The notes beneath the pieces are model-generated. The model made no database searches and was not told the origin of the DNA. It saw only the letters and a program-made list of their open reading frames with translations. From contig CM097888.1 of assembly GCA_044892525.1 (NCBI GenBank), positions 35,588,001 to 35,652,000 of the forward strand: 64,000 nt of DNA, in the 5' to 3' direction. The translations under genes and the position numbers were made by a program. Positions within the stretch are counted from its first letter, which is position 1, and every line of letters starts with the position of its first letter. Positions 480-23,800 of the stretch are shown here, piece by piece. The stretch comes from Schmidtea polychroa (lineage: Eukaryota).

Positions 480-970
480 CTAGTGCAGTTAGAGCAATTG
501 GAGAGTATGAAGAACGATACAAGCGGAAAGCACCTGATCAGACAACAGTTCAATATGGGAAAGACTAGTTATGGACAGAAGAGAGCTTACAGCTAAGACA
601 TAAGACAGGAAGACTTTAAAAGGAGAATCTCACGAATGAAGTGATTCATTATATCTTATAACACAACGAAGCCGCAATTCAGATAAATGGTCTCGGATAT
701 TGGAACATCCCAATCAACCGTTCACAGAATCGTTAGAAAAGAAGATATCCGTCCGTGAAAATATCAACAATTTGCGATTTTGGCTCTGGTATTTCGTCAA
801 ATATAACGTCTAACGAAACAGGCCTGCGACTCCAAGAAAATAGAGATTCAATTGAAAATTCGTTGAAAAACATCCCAACCAAGATGATTCAATCTTGTTA
901 TCGTTAATTTGTTAAGCATTGTTGAGTGTGCTTACAATAAGAAAGATGCCATATTGAACATTATGTAATG
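480..970 (+). mobile_element. Highly degraded Tc1/mariner-type transposase remnant
   Basis: Broken frames give DIGTSQSTVHRIVRK (HTH-like) and FWLWYFVKYNV...KNIPTKMIQSCY...CHIEHY*, resembling the DFFLWG..K..VY...GGHFEH C-terminus of DD37D/maT-like transposases; many stops and frameshifts. Confidence 0.5.
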
Positions 971-2419: not shown

Positions 2420-4131
2420 TCAGAAATTACTCTCATTCTTTTTTTTCGGAATCGAAGGTTGGAATTCATTTTCATCAGTCGAAGTTATTTGTGCCGATTC
2501 GATGTTTGAAGCAGAAATATTTACATTCTGAGAGGTGGTAATAAAATCGGTTATTAACAATTGCTTCGAATTTTTTGTAAGATCTTTGTAAACTTCTTCA
2601 TATTGAGCCAAGTAGCGATTTATGTCACGTTGGAATCGTAAAGCCCTTTCTACGTTTGTGTCATTTGCTTTCTTCCCAATGCGAGTCCTTCGCGGATGAC
2701 TTTAGCAGTGAATGTTACTGGTACTAATTCCTCTTCATCAGATTTTTCAGACTCACTTTCGCAAACTAAGTTAACTAAATCATCCTCACTTAGTTCTTTA
2801 TCAGCCATTAACTCTGCGATATCATCATCAGTAAAATCATCAAAACCTTCTCCGCCCAATGAATGCGTCATCTGTACTATCTGCAAATATTCATCATTTA
2901 ACGTTGAAATGGAATGTTCATTTTTGACTACATTTGGCCACAATTTTTTCCAACAGCTATTGAGTGTTGTTTGCTTAATTGCAGTGTATGATAAGGCGAT
3001 ATGCTTCACACAGTCTAATATTGTAAAATTTTTCCAAGCACTAATAACTGTTAAAGATTCATTTTTCTCCATTTGTTCCAAAATATATATAAAGGCTTGT
3101 TTTATGTACAAAGCTTTAAAAGTAGAAATTATGCTTTGGTCCAATGGTTGTAATAATAAAGTTGTATTTTTTGGTAAAATATTTACTTCAACGTTCTCAT
3201 ATTCTAGATCTTGTGGGTGACCCGGCGCATTGTCAATTAACAAAAGCACTTTAAAAGGCAATCCCTTTGAACCTAAATATTTTTTGGCATCTGGGATAAA
3301 ACATTCATGAAACCATTCAGTAAACATTGCAGCAGTAACCCACTCTTTCTTATTAGCCCTCCAATAAACGGGAAGATTTTTGATGTTTACTCCTTTAAAG
3401 GCACGGGGCATTTTTGATTTGTTAATCACTAATGGTTTCATAATATAATCTCCTGAAGCATTGCTACAGAAAAGAATTGTTATGCGATCTTTTGCTGCTT
3501 TATGACCACTAGCCGATTTATAAAATTTTGAGACATAAGTCCTTTCAGGCATTTTTTTCCAGAATAACCCTGACTCATCAGCATTGAAAACCTGATCAGG
3601 GGTGTATGAATTGTCGTTAATAATTTCTCCAAAATTTGCTGGATATTCATGGGCTGCATCTACGTGGCCAGAAGCCAGTTCACCTTTTAATTTTAAGCTG
3701 TGTAAAGAATGTCTTATTTTAAATCTTTCAAACCAGCCATGACTTGCCAAAAAATTTGGCTTCTTTTCAGTCGAAGAAGATGGTAATTGCTCTACAATTT
3801 TTTCGTAAATTCGTACTGCTTTATTTGTTATAGCGGCCGTATCAATGGGTACTCTTTTTTGTGTTTGATCTTCTATCCAAAGCATTAACGCTTTCTCCAT
3901 TTTTTCCATTGCGATATTTCTGGTGTATGATGTTTTGCCCATACTCGTGGTATTGCCAGCTGCAACACTCTTTCTAATTGTGTTTTCATTTGTTCTAATA
4001 GTTCTTATTGTAGCTTCGTTCATGCTATATGATTTTGCAACATCTACTACTCTATCTCCCTTTCGTAAGCGATCCAAAATTTCGATTTTAGTTTCTAAAG
4101 AAATAACTTTTCTTTTAACTTCTTTCGACAT
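2420..4131 (-). pseudogene. Tigger/pogo (TIGD1-like) transposase: CENP-B-type HTH plus DDE_1 domain, C-terminal frameshift
   Basis: 493-aa ORF 4131-2650 with SHGWFERFK, FNADESGLFW, LLIDNAPGH, QPLDQ (DD30D spacing); near 2670 the frame shifts and the natural tail continues as ANDTNVERALRFQR...AQYEEVYKDL to 2420. Confidence 0.9.
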
Positions 4132-4359
4132 TATAAGCCTATAATTTTTTTAATTTATGTTAATTTATAATATGTAATCTAAATTATGCACTCACTTTAA
4201 ACTTTAAAACTTTAATTTTATGCGAAGAAATACAGACACAGTGTGCATGTGCAGCAAGTCAGCACATAAGCTCGGGATTCCCCGTGAGATGTGTACACAG
4301 CGCACGTGTTCAAACACAGTAGCATTTAGTAGAGTGCGATAAAAACAAAAAAAAACTTA

Positions 4360-4576
4360 CCGTATTTTCCCGCATATAACCCGCATTCGCAGATAACCGT
4401 CATACTCAGATACCCCACAAGTTTTTAAGTTTTGTGTAAAAATTAAGCAATATAGTAAAATAACAAATACTTGTAAAAAATGTTTGATATAACCCGCGCT
4501 CATATATACCCCGTACCCCCCCTGTGGGATACGTAAAATTCGGTATAACCCGCGGGTTATATGCGGGAAAATACGG
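4360..4576. mobile_element. 217-bp MITE (Tc1/mariner superfamily, CCGTA-type ends) nested in the Tigger element
   Basis: Perfect 25-bp TIR ccgtattttcccgcatataacccgc; TA on both flanks (4358-4359, 4577-4578). Confidence 0.93.
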
Positions 4577-4693
4577 TATTTGAAAAACCGTGTAAAACAA
4601 GTACCGTGTAAATCGGGGGATAGGTGTACTTTGCTCATACAACATTATAAAAGTATTTCTGAAAATTATTATTGAATGACAAATCATTTCTAG

Positions 4694-5094
4694 AACCAGC
4701 AATTCTTGCAATTATGTACAATTTAACAAGCAATTCCGATATTTCTGTTTCTTTGGTCGACTTTTTAGTTAAAGTAAATTGTGAAAGTTATATTCCTTAT
4801 CTTCAATTTTTAACAGACAGTCGATCTTTTTTTTCCACTTGTAAGAGACCAAATTATCAGTTGTTTTCGTTTTGGCTTAGACGAGGCATTCAGAGTTAGT
4901 GTATTCAGGTATAGACTATATTTGTTAGTTATTGTGTATTGTGGCCTATTGTAGATCACTTGCACCCCTACACGATGTCTTGAAACATCACTCAGAACTT
5001 CATCAACAGTTTCTAGAATTAATAGGCGATACATCCAATACTTATCCACAGACACCACTGAATACTATCACGTTTGCTCTATCTGTAATAAACG
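4694..5094 (+). pseudogene. INTS3: Orphan duplicate of three INTS3 exons (4694-4773, 4817-4908, 4955-5094)
   Basis: Aligns with INTS3 exons 32664-32743, 32787-32878 and 32925-33064 of this window (EPAILAIMYNL..LVDFLVK / LFFPLVRDQII..RVSVFR / SLAPLHDVLKHHSELH); all splice sites and frames retained; I found no flanking INTS3 exons. Confidence 0.85.
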
Positions 5095-6127
5095 GTAAGT
5101 TATTGTTAAAAAATGATTTTTATAAATATTTTATAAAAATGAAATATAATAAAACTTTCTTAAATTCAATCGAAATGAAATCCTTTTGAAATTTTTAATC
5201 TTTCATAATAAATCGATATTTAATTTTTTTATTATGATGATTTTTGATGAATTTTCTAATTTTTCACAATTTCCAAAACCTAAATTAACGTTTCCACTTC
5301 ACTGGACAGTATAATTGTAACTTTATAGAAATACATGCTACCAAACCCAAAAATGATATTTGAAGTAGATAAATTATGTAGTTAATAATATCGATCAAAT
5401 ATGAAAATAATCTTGCATGCCGACACATCAAAATTGGTATATAAAGGCTAATGGAAGGATGTTTGAATCAATACTTCCTAATTCTACTGTTCCGTAACGT
5501 AATATAATCCACATAATCGATACTGAAAAATTGACTTTAATTTTAATTAATAACATGATATTTTTATTTTTTTGCTATCTGAAAAATGATTTTTCAAATC
5601 GAATGATGTATAATTTAGCCAGGTATCCCCTTTAAACTGTTATACTATGTGTTATACTATAAATTATTGTAAGTAAATTCAATTTATTGATTTAAAATAT
5701 CGCCTAATAATTTTTTAATTTTAATCGACAAATCTATTGATTGATTCATAGTATAATTTATTCAAGTATTCTTTTTAAAACTGTTATACTGTATTCAAAA
5801 AAATTAATTTGATTTATTTTATTATTTGCATTTTAGTTTAAAACCTTATTTCAATCGATATCATAACATTTATTATAATTTTTCTATGCAACAATGCGAC
5901 AAAGTTATTAAATTTTGAGCTAACTGCTTGATTTCCTCTGGTTAACCTATTCGATTAAATATTGAGATATATTTAGCCCGTGAGTAAAAATTACATGCCG
6001 TTTTTCCCTTATTATAAGCCTTATCATGATTTTATTGATATTTTCATACATTGTTAAAATAAAAAATATATTTGAAATGTTCAAAATGGCGGCTTATTTT
6101 TAAAAAAAACTCCTGGGAGAATAAATA

Positions 6128-6561
6128 TTAGGTCTATAACTTGAAAACTTATCGTGGCAAAGAAATGGTTATTGTCACAAATTAAATGAAATATTCAACT
6201 AGCAACGTTATATGTCAAATTTGATATATATTTGAACCATAATTAAACGACGCAAGGTGAATTTCCACCACGACAACGTTCTACCACATATAGCAAAAGT
6301 TACGTTATCGTCACCTACCTTGGAACTTCTAGTCCACCGTGTGTATTCACCAGAAATTGTTCCTTCTGATTATCACTTATTCCGATCGATGCAGCATGGC
6401 TTGGTAAATGAGCGCATCAAAAGATACGAAGAACCCACTTCTTTTAGCGTAAAATCCACTTATTGTCAGAAAGATGGAAAAATTTTAAAATTTTGATTAA
6501 AATAAAAATTATCATTTTCACAAAATAAACGTTTTCTCAAGTTTTCAAGTTATAGATCTAA
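6128..6561 (+). mobile_element. Internally deleted mariner element (434 bp)
   Basis: TIR ttaggtctataacttgaaaactt with 1 mismatch; TA TSD at 6126-6127 and 6562-6563; internal frame FHHDNVLPH..LVHRVYSPEIVPSDYHLFRSMQH matches the mariner YSPDLAPSDYHLF motif. Confidence 0.9.
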
Positions 6562-6828
6562 TACAAACACTAGTTTTAATAGAGGAGACACAGTAGTAGT
6601 AATAACACAGCTGGTGATAACATAGAAACACAGATTTACTTATTTCAATATATTATACGCCTAGTCAAATTTTGTGATGTAAATTATAAAAGGGATTACT
6701 GTTATGGAGATACTGTTCGTTGTATGTTACAGGAATCTAACCAAAACTCATGATATGGTCTTCAGTAAATAAAATTCTTAGATCTTAATATATAGTATGA
6801 GCTGCAATTATTCAGTGGCCAAAGTAAA

Positions 6829-6964
6829 NNNNNNNNNNNNNNNNNNNNNNNNNNNNNNNNNNNNNNNNNNNNNNNNNNNNNNNNNNNNNNNNNNNNNNNN
6901 NNNNNNNNNNNNNNNNNNNNNNNNNNNNNNNNNNNNNNNNNNNNNNNNNNNNNNNNNNNNNNNN
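6829..6964. other. Assembly gap (N run)
   Basis: Run of N. Confidence 1.
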
Positions 6965-8339
6965 AATTCATCAAATGCTATAGTTTTAAAAAATAATACA
7001 AATTTGCAACGACTTTCATGCGTTAATGCATAACATAGACCGGAAGTCAATAGTAAATGAATGTAATGTTTGTAGTGCGAATGCATATTTCTCTGCTTTC
7101 TTATTGAGAATTAAATTCTGTCTATTGTTTGTTACAATAAAAACTAGTTAAATTAAAATTTTAAAATGAGCAAGTGAGTTTGGTGTATTGAGTTATCATC
7201 AAGTCAAAGATTCCAGTGATCTGCCCCCAGTGGGTAAATAGCGTAATGGAAATAACTTTTTAGTGATTCCTAACCTTTCTAGGCTTATTAATGACAGATG
7301 ATAATTCAATGCTTTTTATTTGAGAATGGACTATTTACTGCTATAAATCATTATATTGAAATTCACGGCTCTTGATACAAAATATCACTTTATTTATACA
7401 AAAAAAAATTAGTAACCAAAAGTGAAGGTGGATTCTCTTAGATATTTAACTTGGTGTTTAGTGCTCACTATCATCTCCATTGGGTTAGATCTGTGTTTGA
7501 TGCTGAGTGTTAATATAAATTGGAGTTATTGGTTTTTAAGTGTAAAAATGTGCAAAGTAATTTCTGACTATAATCAGAGATATTTTTTGGGGGTTTTAGT
7601 CCGAAGTACTCAAATATTTTGCACCATAAAAATTATAATTATTGGTTTAACTTTAAAGTTTTGAAATCAATTCGTTTTATTTTTGAGAATCCATCCAATT
7701 TTTTCTGTTTCGACTTTTTTTTCACATACTTTAGAAATTTTCATTCAACAACATCTTTCAATTCCGCATCCTACATATAAATTGTACTTTTCCATCTTCA
7801 CAGTTTTTCTCCCTTTGTTATCTATTCATGATATATATTTTTCATTGATTAAGAAACAATCCTAAAAAGTAGAATACATAATCGTTTGTACATACATCTT
7901 TGCCACACCGACTATACCACACCAAATGCGACAATACGAATAAAAACACCATTGTGTTCAATGATATAAATCAATTTCTTCAGTTGGCAGTGATTTCTTT
8001 GCATTTAAATCGATAACCAAGATCTAAACAAAATTCCGAACCCCACCAATAAACAAAATGAGGAAATAAAAAGAGGAAATAAACTGTTTACTGAATATCT
8101 TTAAACAAACCATATATTACACATAATATTACAATACAAACACAAACATAAAATCGTGTTCACTGATATTAATGAATTCCTTCAGTTGACAGTGGTCAGG
8201 ATCTTGAGTCGGAGATGACGGGTAGTTAGTTACTCATGTGTATACGGTATTTTAATTGATAACCAAGATCTAAACACGATTAGTAGACAATTTTATAACG
8301 TAGAATGCACACCGGCAAATAAACATCGCTATTTACATC

Positions 8340-8680
8340 ACACAAAGCCAATTCATGTTGTGGGTTAAAGGTTATTCAGTTATCGGGAAGAGGTGAAAAT
8401 CATTAAGGACGAGATCGGGACCAGTGACAATACATATGAGTCAATTGTTGCTGTTGACAGGCAGAATGTGTGGATGCAATAGCTAGTGTACATTATTTCC
8501 TCTTTTCTCCCACCTCTTGATTCCTTTTGGTTTTGACATCTGATGCAGTGAAATCAATTTTGAGGTCTTTCATGCCAAAAGATTGGAAACACCAGGCATT
8601 GCTTGTGACATGTATGTAAATCCTCAGAAGTGTGTCATCTTTTGTGTTTCAGATTGGCATCCCCAAGTTTTTCAAAATTT
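8340..8680 (-). mobile_element. Degraded mariner transposase fragment
   Basis: Minus strand gives VFPIFWHE (cf. MVTVFWD) and PDLVLNDFHLFP (cf. SPDLAPSDFHLFP); broken frames. Confidence 0.4.
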
Positions 8681-9465
8681 TTCAAACCAATACTTAATAT
8701 TCTTATATATTTTATTAATTTGTTCGAATAAGCAATTTAAAATCCATACTCTTTTCTTTCTTACCTGATTATCAAAGTGAACCTGTCGAGTTATAAATCT
8801 TATAAATAAACCCTTGTGGAAATGTTGCTGTAATTGATTGTTATTTCTCAACTTCGAATAATTATTTTATATTTATTTACATTGTATTTATTAGAAATTG
8901 TTTGACTTTGAATCAGTGAAGATAGCGATGTTTTTTTTTTGAGATTCACGAATTTTTGGCACAGCTTTTTCAAGTGATTTTCATATTTATTTCCCTCGAT
9001 TTTTAGGATATCATCAAATGTAAAGTGGAAGTAATATGTGATTGATCAGAGTTGTTTATGTCGCAGAATTTAATGTTTATTCCAAGTAACTTTTTTGAGA
9101 CTGACACTTGGATGTGGATAGAATTCTATGTGACAAATCTAATATTCAGCAAAAACAACCTTTGCTTTATTCGGAATTACATTGTGTTTAGACAATTGGT
9201 TTGCATTCTAATACATTTTATTTTGTGTCTTAATTTTCGATAATTTAATTTAATTCGAAAATAATTCATGTCATTTACAGAAAATTAAGTGGAATCATCT
9301 TGAAATACGTTGGAAATATTCCGCTGGTCTTTATTAATCAATTGGGAATTTTCTAAATAAATTACTAAAAATAGAAATTAATTTTTAAAAAGTATAAATG
9401 TTACTAAAAATGGAAATTTAAAATTACTATTTAAAATCTATGTTATAATGAGAAAAATAAGAATA

Positions 9466-10156
9466 TGCAGACAGGAAGTTTTTTTTACATCAACTGCATG
9501 ACTAAAAAGTCAACTGAATAATGTTGGGCTGAGCCGGAAATTTAAACGTCGAAAATATAAACTTAGGAAATTTTAACTTAGAAGGTAAGACAAATAATAT
9601 ACAAAAAAAAATAAAAACAAAATAAATAATTTAAGAATAAAACGGAACAAGAAATAAGAAAATAAGAATTAGGAAAAATAAGAATTAAAACAAAATAAGA
9701 AAATAGAAATAGGAAAATAGATCAACCAACAAAAAGAAGGAAATTTAATAAATAATGAGGAAGCTAAGGAAATAAATAGAAAAACACAATAAAAACACAA
9801 TAAAAACAAAGAAAATAAGGGAAAATAATCATAAAAACAGAAAAAATAATTAAAATAAGCGGTACTCCAATCTGATTGGTCCGCATACACGCAAAAACAC
9901 TATATATACAGACACAAGACTCATTACATTCACGGTTAATTTCAAATTACTACAGGTAAGATTTAAGCGAAAATTACATTGACGGTTAATTTCAAATTAC
10001 TACAGAGACAATCAAGACTCAAGGATCAACTCAGCGCATTCAACAAGGAATCACAACTCAAGAAAACAACAGTATCGCATACATTGAGATCAACGTTGCA
10101 GAGAGATAACGCATAATTTTTCGACTCAGCTCACAGATTCAAATTTATTAACTGCA
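9466..10156 (+). repeat. LTR-like segment
   Basis: TGCAG...CTGCA ends; A-rich block, ccaatctgattgg, tatatata, internal 32-bp duplication; no TSD found. Confidence 0.3.
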
Positions 10157-10329
10157 GTAAGGCGATTTTATTTTGTTTAGATTATAAAATATTATACGTA
10201 ATTATTTACCTATTTAGTTATTTATTTATTTGTTGCTGTTTAAATAATCATTTGCTGTAATAATCATTCGTAAATAAACGATTTATTGTAGGAGTTCATA
10301 TTTTATATGTATATGATTATTTTATAAAA

Positions 10330-11400
10330 TTTATTGAGACACGTGGCGTTGAGATGGATGGCGTTCATGATAAGAGGTGCCCTCGGAAGCTCTATCGTTG
10401 GACGTACATCGTTTCAATCACGCAGCGAGAATGGGCAGTCAAGTGAAGGTTTCTTCACGGGTTCAATCGCTGAGGGCGACCAAAAATCTTATTTGAGTAA
10501 CGGGAGTTGGATCGAAAGAGTAATTTCAGACTTATTGTAAATTAGCTATGCGATACACAGTGATTGAGGTGGACACTTTATCTGTTTTGGCACGGTTAAA
10601 AGACGTTGGGTAGCTCTGGAAAAAGTTGTGAGCATTAAAAATCGAGATCTTCAACGTAACCACTGACTGTATTCTTGGTTCGAGACCGAATTTATGCGAG
10701 AGTTAACCACTAGTCACCCGGAAAATACCTACTTCAATCGATAGCATTATTACTTTCGATTAAAAACATTATCACAGTAGATAGGAAGAAAATTTTCATT
10801 ATCAAATTAAGACATCATAATACATTTGAGTTAAAATCACGATTGTAAATTTAGTTTTCTATCACATGAATAGTTCCATCGTTGATTTGGTTTTTCATAG
10901 TCATCTTTCATTTCATCCCTGAGACTTACTCGCGTCTGGTACATCCATCGGCAGAAAGGGAAAAATATTTCAGACACTAGGAACAGTCAGGCAAAAATCC
11001 AGTTTCAGAGAGTGATGTGCGAATTAACACACTGTAATAGCGTCGCGAATTTTTCAACGTAAAAACGTGCAGATAGGCAATATCCAATTCACGCTGATAA
11101 GATCTATGAGATGGTCGATGAGAAACTTCCAGATTGGCAGAATAAATCCAATAATTTGTTAGCTCTACGTACATGCATTGATAAGAGACTAGTTAACTAC
11201 CACCCGCATAGATAAGAACTCATGAGAGAGATAGACTGTGAACACAAGGAGTTTCAATTCACACGGCATTATGTCCGATAAGTAGTGAGCAGCAGTGACT
11301 ATGGGTATCAGATAACAACTCACATGCGGTAGGGCCAAGTGGGTCATTCACAAGTATCGATTATCGAGATGAGACCGTAAGGAAATAAGCCACCTGCTCT
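10330..11400 (+). mobile_element. Degraded Gypsy-like pol (integrase/chromodomain-like) remnant
   Basis: GC-richer island; broken frames include KLPDWQNKSNNLLALRTC..YHP (integrase C-half-like) and EWAVK*RFLHGFNR*GRPKILF (chromodomain-like). Confidence 0.35.
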
Positions 11401-11937
11401 GCAATTATTCAGCTAAATAGGAGACCTCATTTTAAAGTGCAAGCATTAAGCTTAATTTTCTTAAATTACACATTGGAATAAAAACTTACTGTAAACTTTT
11501 ATATCTGTTTAATCACTGACCTGATATCACTATATCCAAATGTTGCATGTTTCCGGTATAATTAGACTGCAAGTTAAAACATTTTTTCCTTTTCGTAACA
11601 AGTAACATAAAATGTTGTTAGTGTTAACTCTAAAACTGAACACCGCGATCGTAAACAATATTAAGAAAATATTAATTCTAAAATCCTCCAAAGTTTTTAT
11701 AAAAATCGAAACAAATATTTTGTTCATTTTATTTTTGATGCTACTAGTCCGGACAAATCTTAGGTATTAAACTATTTAAATGGTCATATTATTTATTTAC
11801 GGTAATAAATGGTGTTAGAGTTAAATCATAAAATTTAGTTAATAGATTTTCCGGTGTTTACGAATGCCTTTACAGTATGATAGACTCCTGATGATCATGT
11901 TAAAGACATATTTAGGTGATGATTGTGAAATACTGAC

Positions 11938-11952
11938 GGGGGGGGGGGGGGG
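11938..11952 (+). promoter_or_regulatory. G15 tract, candidate polypurine tract before an LTR-like TGATGG start (11955)
   Basis: 15 consecutive G, then aa, then TGATGG; near-complementary CCAGCA end at 13656-13661. Confidence 0.4.
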
Positions 11953-12380
11953 AATGATGGAAAATTTTGAGATGGACTTGAACCCATAAGGGCAACAAGA
12001 GCATAGGCCTTTTGCGAAGTGTATTTCGTTCAAAATCTTAGCTCAAGTAGGGAGTAAAATAGAATAATTAATAAACAAAACTAAATCAATTAAGGGGAAT
12101 AACAAATTAAGATAAAGTGAAGATGTAGAGATAGTGTTCTAAACAGCCATAGGATAACCTTTGATAAATTATCTTAGTGCACGAAAGGGGGAAAATCAAG
12201 GAGTAGATTTAGGTAAGTGACAGATAAACCTCTGATAATCAACTATACAGGGAGAGAATTGATCTCATTAACTCATCTTGTCCTTCCTCTTGCCAGGTAC
12301 CTCACTGTAATTGGACCCTTGTAGCTAACTGACTATTGCATGTATCATTCCCTTAATTTTCTTCATTACAGCCATTCGAC

Positions 12381-13130
12381 ATGTTATCTCAGAATAAATC
12401 GGTGCTACGATCCTGCTTCTCCTGCGCAGATAAAAACGCAGTGATAAAAGATCTTCAAGCCCGGATCGGTCGATACAAGCGGAAGATCGACGAGCTGGAA
12501 GGCACATGGTTCAGCCCAGTGCAAATGAAGGAGATGCAGAAAAAACTTCATCGTAGTGAACATTGCCGGGATGCTCTAATCTCCGAGAGCCGCTCCCAAC
12601 GAAGCTTGATCAAAGAGCAATCCGAGGCACTACACAAGGTGTATGTGCAGGCGACAACGACGAGGAAAATCGTGCAAATCTCCATCCATGAAGCAGATAA
12701 TCTGTTCCCGGTGCACCACGACACCTCAGCGAAAACGTCGTCTCCATTCAAGAGGCCCTGTCGTGAGTGTGTGGAAACTGAACTCTCACCAAGTCGTCAG
12801 GATGTTATCGTCGTAGGGACTAGTAAAGTGCAGCCCAATGTTCCATCTACATCAACTCAGCCGCAAGAGAAGCGGCCAATCGTGAAACCCAAGTGCCGGC
12901 AACCCACGACGACCGAGCGTAAGAGGAGGCAGCGTGAACGAGCCTCAGTAGTATCTAACAACCCTCCAACGGGAGATCCGATCAATACTACCAACTCCCA
13001 CCCATCAATTGACTTAACTACCGGAGTCCCAGCGCGGATCATCGCAGCCACGGGAGTGACGTGGGAAGAAAATGCCGGTGAATTTTTTGACCTGGACGAG
13101 CTACTAAAAGATACCGAATGGGAGAAGTGA
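12381..13130 (+). CDS. Cassette A ORF, 249 aa: coiled coil, EGTWFSP motif, basic NLS-like cluster, acidic aromatic tail; unknown function
   Basis: Intact GC-rich ORF; ATG 10 nt after acceptor ttcttcattacag (12371); upstream donor ttag|gtaagt (12213); aataaa at 13259; shares EGTWFSP with ORF 17868-18326. Confidence 0.7.
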   Translation: MLSQNKSVLRSCFSCADKNAVIKDLQARIGRYKRKIDELEGTWFSPVQMKEMQKKLHRSEHCRDALISESRSQRSLIKEQSEALHKVYVQATTTRKIVQISIHEADNLFPVHHDTSAKTSSPFKRPCRECVETELSPSRQDVIVVGTSKVQPNVPSTSTQPQEKRPIVKPKCRQPTTTERKRRQRERASVVSNNPPTGDPINTTNSHPSIDLTTGVPARIIAATGVTWEENAGEFFDLDELLKDTEWEK

Positions 13131-13394
13131 ACAGCTGTAACGAACTACTCTTTTTTCGATCATTACCTGACATGTTTCGTCCACTTATCTTCTCATCGAT
13201 TCTCTCTCTGACAATAGTGATTCGGTTAAATTTGTATAGCTCAATGTTATAGAATTGTAATAAAATTTTAGTTTTAGTGATTGGGTTTTTATGATAACTA
13301 ACTAATAACTGTGTAAAGACGAGAGTGTATTGGTTTATTGCGTCGGGATATATGTGCATTCGTCGTACCACCAAGGAGATTGATAGTGTGCGTT

Positions 13395-13661
13395 GACATA
13401 AGTCCTTCTACCGGCAGTCGTGTGGGGAGAAGTCGAGGCCTCAGTAAGGAGTAGTTCTAAGGTAGGAATTCACCTGCTTACTGACGTCTCGCCAGCGTGG
13501 TACAGTTCCAACGTGGAGCAATCCACGGGTGCCACGTTGTAGGGTAAATTATGTGGGGCCCTCCTCAAAGTTGACAAGGGAATAGCGATTTCATGAAATG
13601 GACAATCATCCCTTAGAGCTAAGCGTAAACCAAGGAAGGTCAACTGAGTGGTGCCCCAGCA
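13395..13661 (+). ncRNA. Candidate structured RNA element, copy A
   Basis: gac..ccttctaccggca..gtc hairpin; cagtaag/cttactg stem; cgtggtac/gtgccacg stem enclosing cgtgga-GCAA-tccacg; terminal ggggc/gcccc, agttgac/gtcaact and aaggga/tccctt stems; homologous to 16934-17207 and 17469-17674. Confidence 0.6.
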
Positions 13662-14289
13662 ATAATATCATTTTTAAATTGATAATTTAGAGATCGAAAA
13701 ATAAAGAAACATAATGGTTAATGCAACCATATTCATTCTATACCTAAACTTGATTGTTAGGCATTTTCTTTTTTTATAATTATCGTTTCACCTTGAGTTG
13801 CAATAAAAACGAAAAATTTACTTGCCATCTATAACTGAAAACCGTGCGAATTCTAATACAGGACATTCATAAATCTTAATCGACCGCCTGTTAATGAATA
13901 CACTGATGATATAAATCAGGTTGGAAATCACCTTTACAATGAGTTCCACCCACGAGCTATGGAAAATTGATTTCTCCTTATTAGTCGCGTCGTTACAAGA
14001 CCTGTCTAGAATCTTGGAAATGACATCAGCTCCTAAATTCGTTACCCATAACACTCTAGATTTGATTAACCAAAATATATTGTCTGTGATTCGAAAATAT
14101 AATGACACAATAATGTTTTTTTTTCAACAAGCCCTTAATATTCATTTTCGGCTTGGAATTAAATCTATTTATCTAAGAATGTAACATTTTAAATTTTATA
14201 TTAATATTATTTTTACGGCTTTTTTCAACAAATTTTATACTACAGTAACATTTTACAAAAACATATTTATGTTATTATTCCGGAGTATA

Positions 14290-14930
14290 TTCACCATCTA
14301 TTTTAATTACTGCTTACAATTTGTTTGGCAGTCGGAAGAATCCATGAGGGTATACTTTTCTTAGATGCAATCCACTCTGATGGCGTCAACTAAGTCATAT
14401 AAGTTTTAGTAAACTTTGTTAGCGAGCCAATTTTTTAGTAATCGATTGACGTCTTAGTCTGTAGGAGTATATGGCGGATGAGGAAGCAGTTCTCAGCTTA
14501 TATTGGTGACAGATTCGTCGACAAGAAACTCAATATGTTTACGAGCATTCTCGTAGTGGAAGATGATGTTGTTCTTATCGACTTGAATGTAGCGTCAATG
14601 TGGTCAAATTGAGTCAGGTAGACGTCGATATATATATATAAAATCGCCGTTTTTCCTTATTCCACCAGTATCGCACTCTTTCGTCATCCTAATACCTATC
14701 CCTCTTTTCTCTTCAAAACTTCAAAATAACTATGGTTTATCATTAAGCAACTTCGGTACTGTATTTTAGTAAGTGTTTGAAGACAAAAAGTGAGTCTAAT
14801 TTTAAGGACTGCAAATGTTCTGACACACCTTTGGTACCCAGGCTTACCATAAAAGGTGCAGCGGTCTATTAGTCCGTTCTAATACCATTGTTACCTTAAT
14901 TGTGTTTTTCACCATCACTTTGATGGAGTC
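14290..14930 (-). mobile_element. Degraded mariner transposase fragment
   Basis: Minus frame IIFHYENARKH..*ELLPHPPYTP..LLKNWLANK matches mariner FHHDNARPH/WELLPHPPYSP; many stops. Confidence 0.65.
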
Positions 14931-15391
14931 TTTGTACTCCCTAACAAATTCGAAATAGTCAAACAATCGAGTAATGGGATTTCATTTGTTAACGAAACTC
15001 AAAACTATAGTGGCCGATGATGTTTACCTTTTTGTTGGTTAACATAACGAAATTTAGATTTAAGGTGCGATAAATTAATAAAAAGCCAAATCACAAAATA
15101 GTAAAATTTAATCTGAAGTTTAATAGTTTTTGTTGAAATTATTAGGCTCTTCATTTTGTATTTTAGTCTTTTTATGTAGAAAATTGGAATTTAAATTTGA
15201 TTTTAATATTAAATGAATTTTCACAAAGTGTTGACATTATATCAAAACTATTTAACTAAATCTTTGACATTAAAGCTACGAGCCGATTTTCTTCGATTGA
15301 ACCTTTATTTAACATTCAAGATGAAGATATAATTTAACTAAATTCTTATTTGAATATGTTTCTCTTAAAAAAATACTGGCTTTCACATTGT

Positions 15392-16065
15392 TGTTGGGCC
15401 AGAATTGAGAGTTGTTTTAATGAATCGGAAATACATAACATATGAAATCGCACCAAGTTGAATTAAAATCCATGATCATATACTAAATAACACAAACTAA
15501 GATACACAAAACATAGAGGATGAATAAAACACGTATAATAGAATAAAGGAACGCAAGAAGTTGCAATCTCCAACCCAATTAGGAGAAATATCGCATTCGA
15601 AAAATCTAAAAACTAGAAAATAAAATAATAATAAATAAAATAATCAATAATAAATTAATTAATAATACGAAATGTTTTAAATAAATAAATTTAAAATTGA
15701 CACTAAAATATAAAGTAAACTGATAAAATGATATAAAAATAAAATAAAAGTAGTAAACATATGTAAATTATAAAATTGACAAAACTAAATTGTTTAATGA
15801 AAACTAAAATAAAACCAACAAAAAATTATTTAAATAATAAAATTTATAGAACCAAATTGTTTAAATCAATGAAACTAAAATAAAATTAACTAAACTTATT
15901 TAACTTATAAAATTTATAAAACTAAATTCTTAAATTAATAAAAACTAAAATAAAACTAAAATTATTTAAATTATAAAATTTATGAAACTAAATCGTAGAA
16001 ATTAATAAAAATTAAAAAATTTTGATTAATTAAACTAATTAAATTAAAAATAAATAATTACATAC
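15392..16065 (+). repeat. LTR-family copy (TGTTGGG start) with AT-rich repeats
   Basis: First ~270 bp align with 55924-56190 (ttttaatgaatcg.aaatacata..cgcaccaagttgaat..ggaacgcaagaagttgcaatc); right end not defined. Confidence 0.6.
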
Positions 16066-16933
16066 ATTCAGGCATGCATGCAAAAGTAATTCAAAATTTC
16101 TCGCATTCTAATTGGATATAGTAGATGAGAATGCATGAATACACAGTCAAAATCAGTATAAATACTTATTGGAAATTCAGTCAGAACTAACAAGTTTAAT
16201 CTGAATTTTTTCATTATTTACCAGACATTCAGGCAGCTCTCAGTTTTCAGTTTTATGACATTTTGGTAAGTTTGATTTGATTTTTGTAATTTAATGTAAT
16301 GTCTAACTCTATGTAACATATATTTGTTGTAAGTTAATAAAATGTTATAGTAAATTTAGTCTGGTTAATTTTCTTGCTTGTTATCCTAATGTTGTGTTTT
16401 GGTTCTTTCTAATATTTATTTCGTAGTAAATTTCTAGTAATTCTTTGCTTGCATGAACATTATTTAATTTGGTATTTATGAACATTTTTATTTTTGGATG
16501 CTGATAGTCGCAGACAATTGACAAGTTTGGAACATCCAGTTCATTGATTTTTATTTTGATGCCCTCCAGCTTGGGATATGGCTGTGAGCTATTGACCGAA
16601 ATGCTGATAGTCACAGACTGTTGACCAATTTGGACCATCGATTTATAGGATAGATATGGGAAATATAGAGTAATTTTGGATGGTTTGAAGCTTTGTTTAA
16701 ATATAGGTAGTAGAGAACGGGTTCGTTTTAGAAGTACATAGGTCATAATTAGGAAATACAGGTAGATCCCTACCCAAATTTTATGAGGAGTATAAAACCA
16801 CATTTATTAACTCGGAAATAAGGGCCGATCTCTGCTCAAATTTTTGAAGAGAATTATAGAAAACAATTAGTAACGAGGACCACAGTTAAATGAATACATG
16901 ACAACACTAACAATAGAATGGATAATGAATAAT

Positions 16934-17207
16934 GACGTAAGACCTTCTATCGGCAGTCTAGAAACCGTAAGGAAAGTACATTGAGGAGTAGTTTTAGCAA
17001 TAAAGCTCACCTGCTCATTGATTTTCAACCATTGTGTACAATACCAGCATGGTCGTCGCAATGGATACACAGTAATGTATATAATGGGAACACCACCTCA
17101 CCCCACCCATCTAAGGTCCCTACACCTCTAAAGTCCCTCTCATTTAATGGTATACCACTTTTCAAATTTTTAAATTAATAATTTTTAACACTGAAGTAGG
17201 GTGGGGT
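16934..17207 (+). ncRNA. Candidate structured RNA element, copy 3
   Basis: gac..ccttctatcggca..gtc; cattgag/ctcattg; ttgtgtac/atacacag enclosing catggt-cgtc-gcaatg; terminal accccaccc/gggtggggt stem. Confidence 0.55.
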
Positions 17208-17341
17208 CTAGAATTCAAACACCCAATTTCAAATCTAAAAATTTATTTAATCTAAGCATTGAAGGTCTAGTGGACTCTAAAATAAGTGGGTATAAGCCGG
17301 TGTTGCCATTATATACACTACTGTACACAGATGGTCTAAAG

Positions 17342-17410
17342 CAGGGGTTTCAAACTCAAACTGGCCTGCGGGCTGCATTAGACTAGTATTATGAGCCGGC
17401 GGGCCGCAAC
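17342..17410. mobile_element. One end of a hAT (Buster/Charlie-like) MITE
   Basis: caggggtttcaaac terminus plus cgggccgc subterminal motifs, as in the 29597-30180 element; other end not found. Confidence 0.55.
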
Positions 17411-17468
17411 ATAAATAATTGTTTTTCAGAACATGTGGAGTCTGAAACTCCGACATTAATATTTATTT

Positions 17469-17674
17469 TGGTGGGTTACAGGTGGTTGAATGATTAAGTG
17501 CTGTTACCAGCGTAACCCAACATGCAACATTGTCTTTCCGCTTGGTACCCGTTGAGTAATCAACGTTGGTACTGTACCAAGGGTTGAGTACTCGCAAAAA
17601 GTGAGCGCATCAAGGCACTATAATTGTCGAGTGCTCCATGGGTTCACGGACTACCGATAGAAGGTGTGTGTCCG
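17469..17674 (-). ncRNA. Candidate structured RNA element, copy B
   Basis: Minus strand: ggac..ccttctatcggta..gtcc; gcact/agtgc; cttggtac/gtaccaag enclosing cgttga-ttac-tcaacg; terminal tgggttac/gtaaccca stem. Confidence 0.6.
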
Positions 17675-17867
17675 ATTTTTTAGGTCCCTTATCAAAATTG
17701 TTTTCCCAACCTTATGCACAAAACCCTCATTTCTCAGGCAATCATAAAACATATCGGATATTATTTTAGTACTACGAAATATGTATTATTTTAACAATAA
17801 AAATATTCTTTTAAGACTACAAAGTATACACAACACACTACAAGGATATATAAACCAGAATAAAAGT

Positions 17868-18326
17868 TCAACTCGGCTTGTTGGTAGAGCTGGCCAATCC
17901 CGTCGTAGACGCTTGCGATGAATTTGCTTGCCGCTCGTACTCGGCCAGCCTGGCCTTCTTCAATTTTTCCCGAATGTTTCGCCCAAGCCGTTTTCTTTTG
18001 GGCTTATTTTCGGCGGCTGGGGGATATATCGCCGCGAGTTCAACGGTCAGTGGCCGAATTTGTCTTGCCACGGCCTCCTGCACCACCTGCTCATTTCGCT
18101 CGGTCTCGAGTGCCCGCACCTGCAATTTCAGGGCGCGGATCTCCATTTGGTCCTGAGCGGCCTGTGTTTGTAGCTGGAGGATCTGGGCAGTTTTCTTCTT
18201 CATCGCTTCGGGACTAAACCAGGTCCCTTCGAACTCCCGGCATTTTCCTTTCAATTTGTCCACTCGGACTCGGAGTTCGTCAGCACGTTTCTGAGCCTGC
18301 TCTCGATCTTTACGCAGGTTCTCCAT
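17868..18326 (-). CDS. Cassette B ORF2, ~152 aa (MENLRKDREQ...): coiled coil, EGTWFSP motif, KPKRKR NLS-like cluster; unknown function
   Basis: Intact GC-rich ORF; ATG 11 nt after acceptor ctaat..ccttttag (18338); ORF-track start 18353 lies in the putative intron. Confidence 0.7.
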   Translation of the reverse strand: MENLRKDREQAQKRADELRVRVDKLKGKCREFEGTWFSPEAMKKKTAQILQLQTQAAQDQMEIRALKLQVRALETERNEQVVQEAVARQIRPLTVELAAIYPPAAENKPKRKRLGRNIREKLKKARLAEYERQANSSQASTTGLASSTNKPS

Positions 18327-18648
18327 TAGCTTGTACACTAAAAGGAGTCTCATTAGTTTTGTTTATACCAAAAAAAATTTATAGAATAAATTATTGGTAA
18401 GATTAAATAATATTGTTATTCGCGCTTATCGCTAGGCCATTTTTATAACCCCTCCATCTACCAACTGACTCATGCAACCAACAAAAAGGAAGAATACTTT
18501 ACGTAAGAACAACCACTCTACGGTTTCTAATACTCAACTATGATACTAATAAATTAGACTAAATCAAAATACTTTATTTAAACACAAACACTTGACGATA
18601 TCTAATACTAAGGGAATAGACTAGGTTATGTTAATTGTCCTCCAATAA

Positions 18649-19014
18649 TCACGACTGATGTTTGCGGGGCCTCCCTCTCTTTCGGGGAGTTGCTTCGGCT
18701 TCTTCGAGTTCCTCCAGGGACACTCCTTCTCGCTTGGCCCGGATTTGGGCCTCTATTTTCTTTAGTCGAATCTGTGCGGCTTCCACGTCCCAGGCCGCTT
18801 GATCTCGAGCCTCCTGCAACCAATTATTCTCCGGCTCCACCTTCACCCATGCCGGGGCATCCACTTCGGGGCCCGTCCGGATTACTCGAGCTGCGCAATC
18901 CAGGTCCCTTCCCTGACCCCACCGATGTATATGGTGCCAGATGTACCGGGTCCGGAGACGGGTGATCGTCTGCTGGTCAGTACCCTCGTCACTGCTAGAG
19001 CTAGATTGCGACAT
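18649..19014 (-). CDS. Cassette B ORF1, 121 aa, C-terminal AT-hook (TPRKRGRPRK); unknown function
   Basis: Intact GC-rich ORF; ATG 2 nt after acceptor tatttatattacag (19017); upstream donor gagag|gtaagc (19536). Confidence 0.7.
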   Translation of the reverse strand: MSQSSSSSDEGTDQQTITRLRTRYIWHHIHRWGQGRDLDCAARVIRTGPEVDAPAWVKVEPENNWLQEARDQAAWDVEAAQIRLKKIEAQIRAKREGVSLEELEEAEATPRKRGRPRKHQS

Positions 19015-19906
19015 GTCTGTAATATAAATATTAAGACCGTGTGCAGCCCGTGTGACTTATAAATTTAAAGTACGATAAAATATACCACATTTTACACAAA
19101 TAGTGCATTAATCACCAAAGTTATTAATATGTATATATATTCAACAATTAATCACCAAGGTTATCCCAATCAATGCCTATACATTTAATAATTAACCATC
19201 AAAGCTATCATAATTAATATATATACATTTAACGGGAAATTTTCGATTTAATTTATTGGGTATCCTGTTAACTAACTAATGGAAAGAAAAATTTTATCAT
19301 CCTTTTAATTAATCAAATGAAAGAAAAAAAATTTTTTTCAATGTTGAGTTTTAATACTAGAAAGTTTATGCCCCGAGCGATAATTCTCCAAAAATCACTT
19401 TGTTTTAAATCATTATTTTATTCACCAAAAGTTATTTACCACTAGTTGGTAATTTAAAAATTATCGAATTACTACTGAATTCGGGCACGCCGGGGTGATG
19501 GGTATTAGCGACAAGCTTAGTTTCTCGTTTGCTTACCTCTCCCTTGGTTGTGTTCATCATGAATGGTACAGTCGACTTTTATGCATTTGAGGTAATTCAT
19601 TTATTTACCGTAAATTTTGATTTCCAGGAATGTTGGATGATAACTTTTCCTGGTTGGAGATGGATGAGCCTAGTTTTGGGAGATCATCCTACGATTCATA
19701 ATTTTTGATTCTTAGTGGCTTGGTAATATGATTTGTTGTTCATAATAAAAGAACAATCTTATGTTTTTATTAATAGTAATTTAATCTTCTAATAAACGAA
19801 GTTATATATTTGCCATTCATTCAGGATTTAAAGGGGGTAGTTTATATGTTGGATCAGGTACTCTCACCCATATCCTCAGCTAACCTAGATGGTGTTAACA
19901 TTTTCT

Positions 19907-19923
19907 AGGGGGAGGGGTGTTGC
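19907..19923 (+). promoter_or_regulatory. Candidate polypurine tract and LTR start
   Basis: agggggagggg directly followed by TGTTGC, the usual PPT-TG junction of LTR retrotransposons; matching CA end not identified. Confidence 0.5.
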
Positions 19924-20079
19924 TAAAAATAACTTTCTAGTATTTCAGTCATTCCTATTAGTTCAAAAAGGTTGATTCCAAATTTAACTCCGGGGGGAAA
20001 TCCTAAATCAATATTTGATTTAGATTTTTATTTTTGTGAACTACAACTTATGAATAGGGACAATGATAGTATTAGCGAT

Positions 20080-20131
20080 GATAATAACGACAATAATAAT
20101 AATAATAGTAATAATGATAATAATAATAATA

Positions 20132-20164
<33 letters not shown>

Positions 20165-20413
20165 GCAATATTAATAGTAATATTNNNNNNNNNNNNNNNN
20201 NNNNNNNNNNNNNNNNNNNNNNNNNNNNNNNNNNNNNNNNNNNNNNNNNNNNNNNNNNNNNNNNNNNNNNNNNNNNNNNNNNNNNNNNNNNNNNNNNNNN
20301 NNNNNNNNNNNNNNNNNNNNNNNNNNNNNNNNNNNNNNNNNNNNNNNNNNNNNNNNNNNNNNNNNNNNNNNNNNNNNNNNNNNNNNNNNNTATCAATCAT
20401 AATATTGATAGTG

Positions 20414-20444
<31 letters not shown>

Positions 20445-21190
20445 GAATAATAATAAGAATAAAGATGATACTGATACTAATAATAATAATGGTGACGATT
20501 TAGAATGATAACTGGAAATATAATCACTTTCAATTCATACTTTATAATTTTAACAAAATTAATTTACATTTCCAATTTTAACGTCGAATGCTTCGATGTA
20601 AGCTATGGTAGCTACTTGTACTTTATATCTTCATGGTCAAATTTTGGTTATAGCTAATTATAATTCATTTCTACATTTATACTTTGTAGTTATACCTAGG
20701 TACAAATTATATTTTATAATACGACTTTACCTCAAATTATTCGTATTCCCTGCTCTTATAGTTAGAACTTATAATTATTTATAATTTATATTCCTAAATA
20801 TTTTATATATAACTAATTATAATTTATAACTTTATATTTTATAATTTATAATTTTGCTTTACCATTTATAATTTTATATTTTGTAGTTTATAAATTTATA
20901 TTTTATAATTGCCAATTTTACATTTTATGATTTATAGTTTTTAATTTTTTCAATTTATAAGTTTATATTCTATAATTTCTAATTTTATCTTTTATAGTTT
21001 TATGTTTTTCAATTTATGAATTTGTACTTTGAAATTTTACGTTTTCTATTTACAATTTCGTAGTTTGTAATCTATAAATTTATATTTTATAATCCGTAAT
21101 TTTATGCTTTATAAATAGTAATTCTAGGTTCTACAATTTATCATTTTATTACTTCACCACTCGTCATTTCATAATTCAGGGTTTATAATT
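20080..21190. repeat. (AAT)n microsatellite around an assembly gap (20185-20390), followed by degenerate ttataatttt-type repeats
   Basis: Direct reading; source of the poly-N/I/L ORFs. Confidence 0.9.
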
Positions 21191-22039
21191 TTATAGTCGA
21201 CTCGTATACTTCTTTATGAGTACCCTTTTTGATCAACATTGTCTTCTAAAATTATTTGCAGATTTCTTGGTACTATTAGGGTATAATTTCAGAATATTGA
21301 CGAGTCTACAGTCTATACATAACTAGTTCTAAGTTAATTGATCCTTATGCTACAATTTATTTACTACTATCCCCATCTAAAACTTATTATCAAGACTTCT
21401 CCATTATCAATTTATATTTTCAGGGTCGATATAATTTATATCTAAAATCTCATAATTATCTATAACTTGCATTTTGATTATAATTAGTAAATTTTATAAT
21501 AAGTACTTATATCTTTATAAATATTTAAGATGGGCGCTTGAATTAATAGATCTGTAATTTAATCGGTTAGATTTGTAATATCTATAGGTAGATTGAATTT
21601 ATTCGCATAGTAATAAATCTCGAAGTCCCAACTAGATGAGGTTATACCCACACATATGCCGGACACTTTATCATTTCTATTACTTCAGTTACTACAAATT
21701 TCTATTACCAAAATCGGATTCGGCATATGTCTGAGTACAACTGGAATGGCTATTATTGCTCAACCGACTTCATTAAGGTGATTGCAGAATTGTGTAAGGT
21801 TAGGTATGAGTTCTACTCAGATTAAGACCTTATTGTAGAGATATTTGACATTGATTTTTAATGTTGATTTTAAATTTGTATTACGTACAAAGTCGGGAAG
21901 AATATTGCTTCCATGGCCCCACTGTGACCACTTCCACAAACCTTAGTGTTGAGTGTTGAGTCAACCATTTACGGTCGACCTTACATAAACACAAAGAGTC
22001 AGACGGAGGTTTTCCTCGACCTAACTCCATGGCAGGACC

Positions 22040-23028
22040 ATGAAGTAGTTCGACCTCCGAAGGACCCGAACAAAAAAAAGTCGTATAGTATCGATCAATA
22101 TAGTACGAATAATGCATCTTGGTAGATTGCATAAAAAATTTTATTCGATATTCACGAATGCAGGACGGAATAGCGACGCACAGTGACGCCGCTGATCATT
22201 CATATTTATCTAAATAACAACGAATTTAGTAAGAATAATTTAATTATAGAAATGTGTTCATTAAAATAATTACATACATGGTTAACATAAAAACAATGCA
22301 ATCAAAAAAAAATACCCACTATCAGTTTCCTTCAAAATTTGGTCAACAAAAAATTATATATACTATTATATATACCTATTTTGTACACGTGTATGTATTG
22401 ATACAGTAAAACAAACTCGAATTCTTTTTATTCCAGAATTTTCTATTTAGCGATTTTGCTATTTTTAATGGCAATTTTTGTGCCATAATTTTTGTTTTTA
22501 TTTTTATATTTTTATTTTTTAATTATTTTTCGTTAATTTGCCGTCCATGATGGATTTGGAACGGTTCCAGAACATTCTATTTTATTTTTAATACAATTTT
22601 CATTTTAACTGATGTTTTATGAATTTCTTTTTGTAGATTTTTTATTTTTAATACTAATTTATTTATTTTATCTAATTTTTATTATTCTAGTTGGCTTTTG
22701 TGATGGTCATCGCCATTTTTGTGGAATGTTCTGGGTTTTTCTGGAATATTTTACTGTTTCTACTCTCTTTTAAGTTATTCGAGTCTGTTTTTGTTTATCT
22801 GTGTTTATTTGGTTATTTTCGAGTTCTATTTTGCATAACCTCTTGCTTTTGGTATAATTTTATTTAATTTCTGTGTTTTAGGTTTATGTTGTTTTTCCTT
22901 TAATTACTATTGTTTATTTGATGTAATTTTAATATTTAACTATACTTTGTGCTTTTTTACTTGCTGTGTACCTACACATTTCGGTCATAATTAGAAGTTT
23001 GGGTCTAGAAATCATTTCTAGCCCAACA
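22040..23028 (-). repeat. LTR-like segment (TGTTGGGCTAG start on minus strand)
   Basis: Same start motif as the LTR at 55924; A-rich body; possible CA|TGGTCC junction near 22040; left boundary uncertain. Confidence 0.4.
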
Positions 23029-23076
23029 ATTTAATTAAAAACTCAACAAAACTAAAAAACATTTTTTTATTATTAA

Positions 23077-23077
<1 letters not shown>

Positions 23078-23140
<63 letters not shown>
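23078..23140. repeat. (AAT)21 microsatellite
   Basis: Perfect trinucleotide run. Confidence 0.97.
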
Positions 23141-23141
<1 letters not shown>

Positions 23142-23800
23142 TGTATAACGTCATATGTATAAATAAAAATAATTAAAAAGATAAGTTTTAATTTATACAG
23201 CCAATTATGATTTTAATTGTTAAATAAGTTTGGTTAAATTACAAATCTATGTATTTTCGTTGCGGGCGTTCAAAGAGTCGATTTAACACTTACAATTACC
23301 CCTAACACTTTTGAAAAATAAAATGAAACACCCCTTAGCGACCAACATTGTTATGAAATTCATTTTCAGTTCACTAATCATGTTAAAAAAATTTTAAACT
23401 CAGATTATTCGAAGAAATAAACTTGTTTAATATTGCACTGACATTTTTGGTTAGCAAATAACTCAGATCAACAAGAAACCGACAATTTTCGAAATTTATT
23501 TTAAACTAAAACTAAAATCCTAATTCTACAAATAAGGTTAAAAATTTAACAAACATATACATTACTCATATGTAAAATCATAAATTCATTTAATTCAGTC
23601 AATTTCAAATGACAAATAGAAATATGTGCACAAAATCCTTGAAATCATTATCTCATGTTTGGAGTAGATGAAGGTAAATTAGATTCACCCAGTCTAAATT
23701 CTCTGTAATAGTTTCTCATTAATAGTTAAGCTTACATTCATGTCTAAAATCTAATTAGTTAGGATAATGAGACCCTCAATAGAATTTGAACATGAATTAA

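Follow-up and report, generated by a model that had tools for sequence, protein, structure and literature searches.

Contacts between a tRNA primer and its template that reach beyond the primer-binding site (PBS) are known from a few viruses and yeast elements, with little natural variation. In HIV-1 (human immunodeficiency virus type 1), an anticodon-binding loop and then a primer activation signal (PAS) lie upstream of the PBS (PMC11251516), masking of the PAS regulates initiation, and a U5-leader stem is known (PMC1865047). Ty1 and Ty3 RNA does more than bind its primer through a plain PBS, as it also pairs with the T arm and the D arm of the tRNA (PMC5371799), and the Rex response element of human T-cell leukaemia virus (HTLV) is a ~250-nt multi-stem fold in the long terminal repeat (LTR), which in HTLV-2 sits in R/U5 (PMC4810248). 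Here we report a four-domain RNA fold that occurs in a 64,000-nt stretch of the Schmidtea polychroa genome (GCA_044892525.1, contig CM097888.1, positions 35,588,001 to 35,652,000; hereafter the window) at the 3′ ends of LTRs of giant Gypsy elements of the Burro type. Such Burro/GYPSM1 elements of planarians are described as gypsy-like and >30 kb long with LTRs, with one ORF1 of ~4,870 aa that encodes a CCHC Gag, a MATH domain, an env-like domain before the protease, protease, reverse transcriptase (RT), RNase H and integrase in that order, ankyrin repeats and BIR (PMC6431247).

The host element and U5-PBS domains as a kind are already known. No account of the fold itself was found in the literature excerpts covered by our search (PMC6431247, PMC8532177, PMC11410931), a coverage that excludes the original Burro paper (Grohme et al. 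2018) and its supplements. Like the HIV-1 U5/PBS region, the fold lies upstream of a PBS, carries matches to the T arm and anticodon loop of the primer, has a boundary-spanning stem and may be masked. It differs in its predicted four separate domains over 200-300 nt, a putative proline codon in an 8x1 internal loop, a T-loop-like hairpin and a 7-8 nt spacer before the PBS, and has no sequence likeness to the HIV-1 region. Ty1 and Ty3 use a bipartite PBS and tRNAiMet, whereas the 18-nt PBS of the Burro-type elements is whole and the extra contacts would lie upstream of it. With the HTLV element, the likeness consists of a multi-stem LTR fold and an element-coded small protein that is Arg-rich by prediction; there is no homology, and the Burro-type fold also occurs in an LTR in which the open reading frame (ORF) for that protein was not found. 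The dozens of diverged subfamilies allow covariation to be followed across a whole U5-PBS domain and contacts to be predicted precisely. For elements at thousands of planarian genome sites, they also yield a first map of cis-elements, which comprises promoter, LTR ORF, fold, spacer and PBS and in which the fold is usable as a marker for LTR ends.

Host LTRs and the parts of the fold

The original prediction, made from the letters of the window, had placed three copies of a multi-hairpin RNA-like element at 13395-13661 (+), 16934-17207 (+) and 17674-17469 (-), and all three were located. By comparison with their genomic relatives, they are the 3′ ends (last 200-300 bases) of solo LTRs from three different Burro-type giant Gypsy subfamilies, here called A, B and C. 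All three stop at the LTR terminal CA, and an LTR U5-type fold, one of the options offered earlier, proved to be the correct one. The two copies said to lie downstream of ORFs with an EGTWFSP motif are in fact in the same LTRs as those ORFs, and one copy is split by insertions, both of which had been overlooked. The LTRs and the parts of the fold are as follows.

9522-13661, + strand: solo LTR A, 4,140 bp, TG...CA, 4-bp target duplication
13395-13419, + strand: A domain 1, a short hairpin; loop 13406-13412 with UUCNA pattern
13420-13435, + strand: A linker 1/2, in which 13429-13435 matches the 5′ T arm of tRNA-Pro best, at 5.5/7
13435-13490, + strand: A domain 2, a long stem with conserved G-G mismatch and U/CAC internal loop (CAC at 13471-13473)
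13493-13539, + strand: A domain 3, a stem, an 8x1 internal loop (13504-13511) ending in CCAA (13508-13511) and a capping hairpin
13547-13661, + strand: A linker 3/4 motif (13547-13553), then domain 4, a variable terminal stem to the LTR end
15392-23347, + strand: solo LTR B, split into 15392-17072, 17330-17341 and ~23262-23347; 4-bp target duplication
16934-17072, + strand: B domains 1-3 in decayed form, with the T-arm match at 16961-16967 and the loop at 17040-17047
17073-17329, no strand: miniature inverted-repeat transposable element (MITE) inserted in B, origin of the terminal stem proposed earlier; 8-bp duplication, 7/8 alike
17469-23028, - strand: solo LTR C, located within B; 5,560 bp, TG...CA, 4-bp target duplication
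17469-17674, - strand: C structure as a whole; domain 1 at 17674-17647, T-arm match 17645-17639, domain 2 at 17636-17586, domain 3 at 17583-17538 (CCAA 17569-17566), domain 4 to 17469
48361-48518, + strand: fourth core copy, strongly decayed, 34.6 bits, E 7e-6

LTR B is interrupted twice, by the MITE and by another insert, in which C lies. The searched genome comprised 781 Mb, mostly in four large contigs, and 40-41 places were scored for each copy among 1,045, 2,433 and 2,650 candidates. Homology ended sharply at the CA in 29 of 30 A loci and in all 30 C loci and ran upstream for kilobases to the TG, and four of the 30 B loci matched the inserted MITE only. TG...CA ends with 4-bp duplications were found for the three window LTRs, a full-length copy and five further LTRs (26 motif matches, 20 loci). 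The full-length copy is of C type (L116-L119), spans 35 kb and has LTRs that are 99.4% alike and a 4-bp target duplication; its single frame of ~4,790 aa (2,632 + 2,156 aa over the neighbouring loci L117-L118) contains the Pfam domains CCHC, MATH, viral fusion protein, protease, RT, RNase H, integrase and ankyrin, and is followed by TRAF-MATH and BIR-RING accessory ORFs. Its size, ORF length and domain set agree with the description in PMC6431247, whose passages on the element do not mention LTR ORFs, PBS or an RNA fold. By this C-type copy, the host element fits the description of the Burro/GYPSM1 type. The end of a Helitron, a non-LTR element or a DNA transposon was ruled out by TG...CA, the 4-bp duplications, the PBS and the lack of poly(A).

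Covariation, strand and abundance of the fold

About 3,000-4,500 copies of the fold are present genome-wide: an exact first-hairpin pattern gave 3008 matches compared with 0 for its reversed-pattern control, and a pattern of the middle plus third domain gave 4480 compared with 11. For the alignment, 145 distinct copies were grouped into 40 clusters with one natural representative each, from which L179 (a chance match) and L195 (a deletion) were dropped, leaving 38 subfamily representatives with a mean identity of 62%. Between subfamilies (28 pairs), identity was 0.64 in the core, 0.54 in the 150 nt upstream and 0.43 in domain 4, and conservation begins abruptly at domain 1.

Against a null in which columns were simulated independently on the tree (a custom test, not R-scape), 20 of the 40 proposed pairs covaried at p 0.005 or less, and at a family-wise E <0.05 three proposed pairs did, as did one non-pairing column pair. 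The top 19 of 5,886 column pairs include 11 proposed pairs and one stem extension. RNAalifold, applied to a plain MAFFT alignment of 39 copies, recovered domains 2 and 3 unaided, with double changes in 18 of 23 pairs and 90.7% of cells paired versus 38-53% when the structure was slid. Among 1,102 cells of the 38 representatives, 846 were Watson-Crick, 142 G-U and 35 A-C; G-U lies far above A-C, and therefore the sense RNA folds. On this comparative evidence the structure is real and strand-specific. Single-copy folding z-scores were modest (A -3.45, B -1.84, C -2.35).

These results bear on most of what had been proposed from the three window copies. The first hairpin, the middle stem and the third-domain stem, bulge and hairpin are present and kept far beyond three copies, and the proposal that paired positions change together agrees with stems that covary beyond the tree-aware null. 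The first hairpin has a lower stem of only 2-5 bp, one pair of which covaries, and RNAalifold does not predict it. The long terminal stem corresponds to the variable domain 4 in A and C but was wrong for the 16934-17207 copy: the stem reaching 17207 is not part of the element, because the MITE is inserted where homology stops (17072). The stems quoted for B were located, but they contain mismatches, the loop is CCAG and the copy is decayed. That G-U wobbles favour the ORF-sense strand was borne out by the counts above, while the GNRA loop adduced for the same strand is not conserved and is confined to the A-type clade. The absence of a shared reading frame also stands, as no conserved frame crosses the element, and a coding explanation was rejected because copies A and C have stops in each of their six frames. 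The comparison thus supports a functional RNA structure in the ORF-sense orientation, as the 3′ end of an LTR and not as a free-standing RNA.

Unpaired bases are invariant in three domains, and the search pattern itself imposes some of this invariance. When left free in the pattern, the CCA of the domain 3 loop was kept in 90 of the first 100 matches, and 152 matches with another first loop base look, among the matches listed, like scattered decay. The domain 2 mismatch is G-G in 27/38 representatives, and five C-type copies carry U-U instead. The terminal loops of domains 2 and 3 are variable and not self-complementary, and the UUCNA pattern of the domain 1 loop is what we take to be of the T-loop type. 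The suggested Rfam search gave 0 matches in the window at gathering threshold; with Rfam 15, there was no match, and a scan of 18 loci at an E-value of 5 gave one chance miRNA match (20.7/60 bits). In other data, viral contigs gave 0 matches to the fold pattern and metagenomes three, which are chance matches. The fold is covered by contigs from three runs presumed to be RNA, and one contig has an overhanging A run 354 nt into the LTR; these contigs were not used, because the stretch with the A run is very A-rich and no listed contig bridges the LTR end and the PBS.

The LTR boundary and proposed docking of a tRNA-Pro primer

In 5′ LTRs, the LTR end is followed by a spacer of 7-8 nt and then by an 18-nt PBS complementary to the 3′ end of the tRNA-Pro(UGG) of this genome. 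Among the first 100 of 818 matches to LTR end plus PBS, 95 were Pro-type (35 in the control), the pattern itself fixing the last four bases; four PBS loci at which the core pattern found no match were left out of the counts. The last stem of the fold in 5′ LTRs extends over the LTR boundary into the spacer and ends at this PBS. In all 12 groups (57 copies), linker 3/4 has 5.5-6.5 of 7 positions paired to the LTR end plus spacer, and it changes in step with them across three spacer types. As judged from these pairings, the boundary stem can form only in RNA read through a 5′ LTR, and the pairing is our strongest indication that RNA with the PBS is where the fold acts.

Because it stands right before the tRNA-Pro binding site, the fold likely positions and controls the tRNA primer. 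We favour, with some reserve, the reading that it is a reverse-transcription initiation domain, a platform that would dock and activate the tRNA-Pro primer. The PBS would capture the 3′ 18 nt of the tRNA and so open the T stem; the freed 5′ strand of the T arm would pair with linker 1/2, like the HIV-1 PAS, and the CCAA loop of domain 3 with UUGG of the anticodon loop, like the HIV-1 A-rich loop. Without the tRNA, the linker may be masked by the domain 1 loop or the PBS, which would put a gate on initiation, and the spacer stem would first have to be unwound by the RT. In solo LTRs, including the three window copies, the fold would be kept only as a relic.

When linker 1/2 was compared with all 7-mers of tRNA-Pro, the best partner was the 5′ T arm (positions 49-55 of the 72-nt gene), with a score of 6.0/7 that was reached by 1% of plain and dinucleotide shuffles; Lys and Arg tRNAs scored 5.4, and the figure for upstream controls was 10%. 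The match amounts to at least 6 of 7 in 23/38 representatives, and the score was repeated in 16 later, related copies (6.06). A linker motif found without tRNA input pairs with the T arm in 241 of 266 cells; its column opposite C55 is G in 34/38, and columns opposite G or U vary mostly in a wobble-compatible way. In domain 3, the loop CCAA is complementary to the tRNA-Pro anticodon loop, its CCA being mostly unpaired (0.66), and the order of PBS, anticodon loop and T-arm match is that of HIV-1.

Several observations weigh against primer docking. The T-arm match drops to 10.7% of shuffles with 6-mers, is partly the complement of the universal T loop and lies ~200-300 nt from the PBS, and the tested regions were picked after the alignment was seen. 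The A-type clade fits poorly (3.5-5.5 of 7); its linker 1/2, including that of window copy A, has a possible alternative pairing with the PBS, which is the better one in 3/12 groups. The anticodon match covers 4 nt and would fit the PBS start or the first bases of the LTR equally, the tRNA does not account for the invariant loop of domain 2 (global null 0.2), and pattern searches of the genome found no subfamily with another primer tRNA or loop codon. Linker 3/4 had itself been considered as a contact of the tRNA D arm; this match beat shuffles (0.5%) but was rejected, the spacer being the better partner in 6 of the 12 groups, equal in 5 and worse in 1, and it shows how such tRNA matches can mislead. 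Also rejected were the 3′ strand of domain 2 as a second PBS (global null 0.2), a match of domain 4 to the tRNA 5′ end (10/38, not significant) and a pseudoknot between loop and linker, which gave a mixed picture, one variant retaining it and at least three disrupting it.

In bacterial T-boxes, the specifier loop is an internal loop that displays a codon with an A after it, to which the anticodon and U33 are complementary. By analogy, the RNA alone might select tRNA-Pro through anticodon, T arm and T-loop/D-loop contacts and gate reverse transcription, a reading that we hold only tentatively: the displayed proline codon would check the anticodon, the opened T arm would be captured, and the fold would offer its own T loop to the D loop. 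In contrast to T-boxes, there is no Rfam match and no antiterminator, and it is the PBS that would read the acceptor end.

At the boundary itself, the commonest LTR end plus spacer has six bases identical to tRNA-Pro positions 20-25, and linker 3/4 could for that reason swap the spacer for the tRNA D arm. The PBS begins 7-8 nt past the CA of 5′ LTRs (e.g. L116:8449-8456) while solo LTRs end at the CA, so that integrase would have to trim 7-8 nt; the usual trimming is 2 nt. Genes for tRNA-Pro(UGG) form a tandem array with a 475-bp period (C1:130.90-130.95 Mb, L222), their pattern has 1,580 matches genome-wide, and arrays of tRNA-Lys and tRNA-Arg genes are also present.

LTR-encoded proteins and other possible roles for the fold

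Upstream of the fold, the LTRs carry a predicted promoter and ORFs, which in the window are located as follows.

9872-9960, + strand: predicted LTR A promoter; reversed CCAAT box at 9872, TATA-like at 9901, splice-donor-like at 9956
12357-13130, + strand: EGTWFSP-family LTR ORF of A; predicted coiled helices, Arg-rich helix and acidic tail
17868-18362, - strand: EGTWFSP-family LTR ORF of C, with a basic stretch
18649-19056, - strand: second ORF in LTR C; its AT-hook-like tail scores below the Pfam cut-off
~19139-19172, - strand: predicted C promoter

An EGTWFSP ORF lies inside the LTR in 8/9 LTRs tested and was not found in the 5′ part of LTR B. The protein matches no Pfam family, and no match >0.79 was obtained in the ESM Atlas, nor anything in word-index searches of the proteins of other species. 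HMMER gave 14 homologues, all unnamed proteins, some with long Arg runs. In the 248-aa model of the A product, the predicted Arg-rich helix comprises residues 176-192 (predicted local distance difference test, pLDDT, 82-87 there), and the LTR protein is a candidate transactivator or RNA-binding regulator. The reversed CCAAT and the TATA-like element ~30 nt on were found 320-520 nt into five LTRs, the box and TATA of LTR A recurring in four others, and the predicted C-type promoter is ~1.7 kb from the LTR 3′ end; given these positions, the fold would lie far from the RNA 5′ end, unlike the trans-activation response element TAR.

Such a protein could bind the fold at the domain 2 G-G and U/CAC loop and export unspliced genomic RNA, making the fold a Rex/Rev-type response element. 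The modelled Arg-rich helix and the Arg runs of the homologues fit this, the five C-type copies with U-U also have the most divergent protein, the HTLV-2 response element lies in R/U5 (PMC4810248), and with the predicted donor just past the promoter, only unspliced RNA would retain the fold. We consider it unlikely, since neither family, sequence nor atlas comparison links the protein to Rev or Rex, the B-type LTR retains the fold yet has no ORF found in it, and the spacer pairing and tRNA matches would go unexplained; it would be compatible with primer docking if the domains do different jobs. Somewhat less probable still is that Gag binds the fold as a signal for packaging or dimerisation and that the tRNA matches are incidental. 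The fold does adjoin the 5′ LTR-leader junction, in PBS-containing RNA only, Gag has CCHC knuckles, and invariant internal loops suit protein binding, but no kissing loop is evident, given the variable terminal loops of domains 2 and 3 that lack self-complementarity, and the T-arm match would be without explanation.

A role in RNA processing, in which GTAAG of domain 1 and CTCAC of domain 2 would govern splicing, or the use of poly(A), at the two LTRs, appears very unlikely. These motifs were labelled on our assumption of the splice consensus: the donor-like GTAAG is found in 25/38 representatives and GCAAG in 2, and the branch-point-like CTCAC is nearly invariant, partly as imposed by the search pattern. 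However, 11/38, including window copies A and C, lack a GT or GC donor, a following AG exists in 11/38 only, and CTCAC sits in a covarying stem. Highly improbable, too, is the ribozyme option of the original prediction, a new self-cleaving or branching activity that would cut the LTR leader, set the end of strong-stop DNA or act in a circular intermediate as in retrozymes: the abrupt start of conservation, the invariant unpaired bases and a predicted start 1.6-3.7 kb upstream, which would otherwise make strong-stop DNA very long, are in its favour, but positive evidence is lacking, Rfam has no match at gathering threshold or E-value 5, the 5,886 column pairs show no tertiary covariation, the pseudoknot is not consistently kept, and cleavage of both LTRs at one and the same site would leave no terminal repeat.

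Among the few copies covered, no polypurine tract was seen in the 40 nt before the 3′ LTR of the full-length copy (L119:3898-3937), nor in the A-type 3′ LTR flank (L101/L102). In its place there is a short hairpin and a C-rich motif common to A and C types. The LTR protein family (12357-13130, 17868-18362) has two long predicted helices and a CxxC in most subfamilies, some of its homologues are fused into host gene models, and the second ORF with the AT-hook-like tail is a feature of C-type LTRs (2/9 tested). Tandem units each with a C-type LTR, >99.9% alike, have lengths of 15.8 kb (C1:39.42-39.47 Mb) and 14.2 kb (C3:94.74-94.77 Mb). Elsewhere in the window, we take the frames at 49192-50490 and 53837-54955 to be adjoining DDX5/DBP2-like DEAD-box helicase frames by their motifs, and those at 2650-4149 (-) and 44175-45909 (+) to be presumably Tigger/pogo-like and hAT-like transposase frames, respectively. 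A long tandem repeat with a 12-bp period and strong strand skew occupies 59376-61464.

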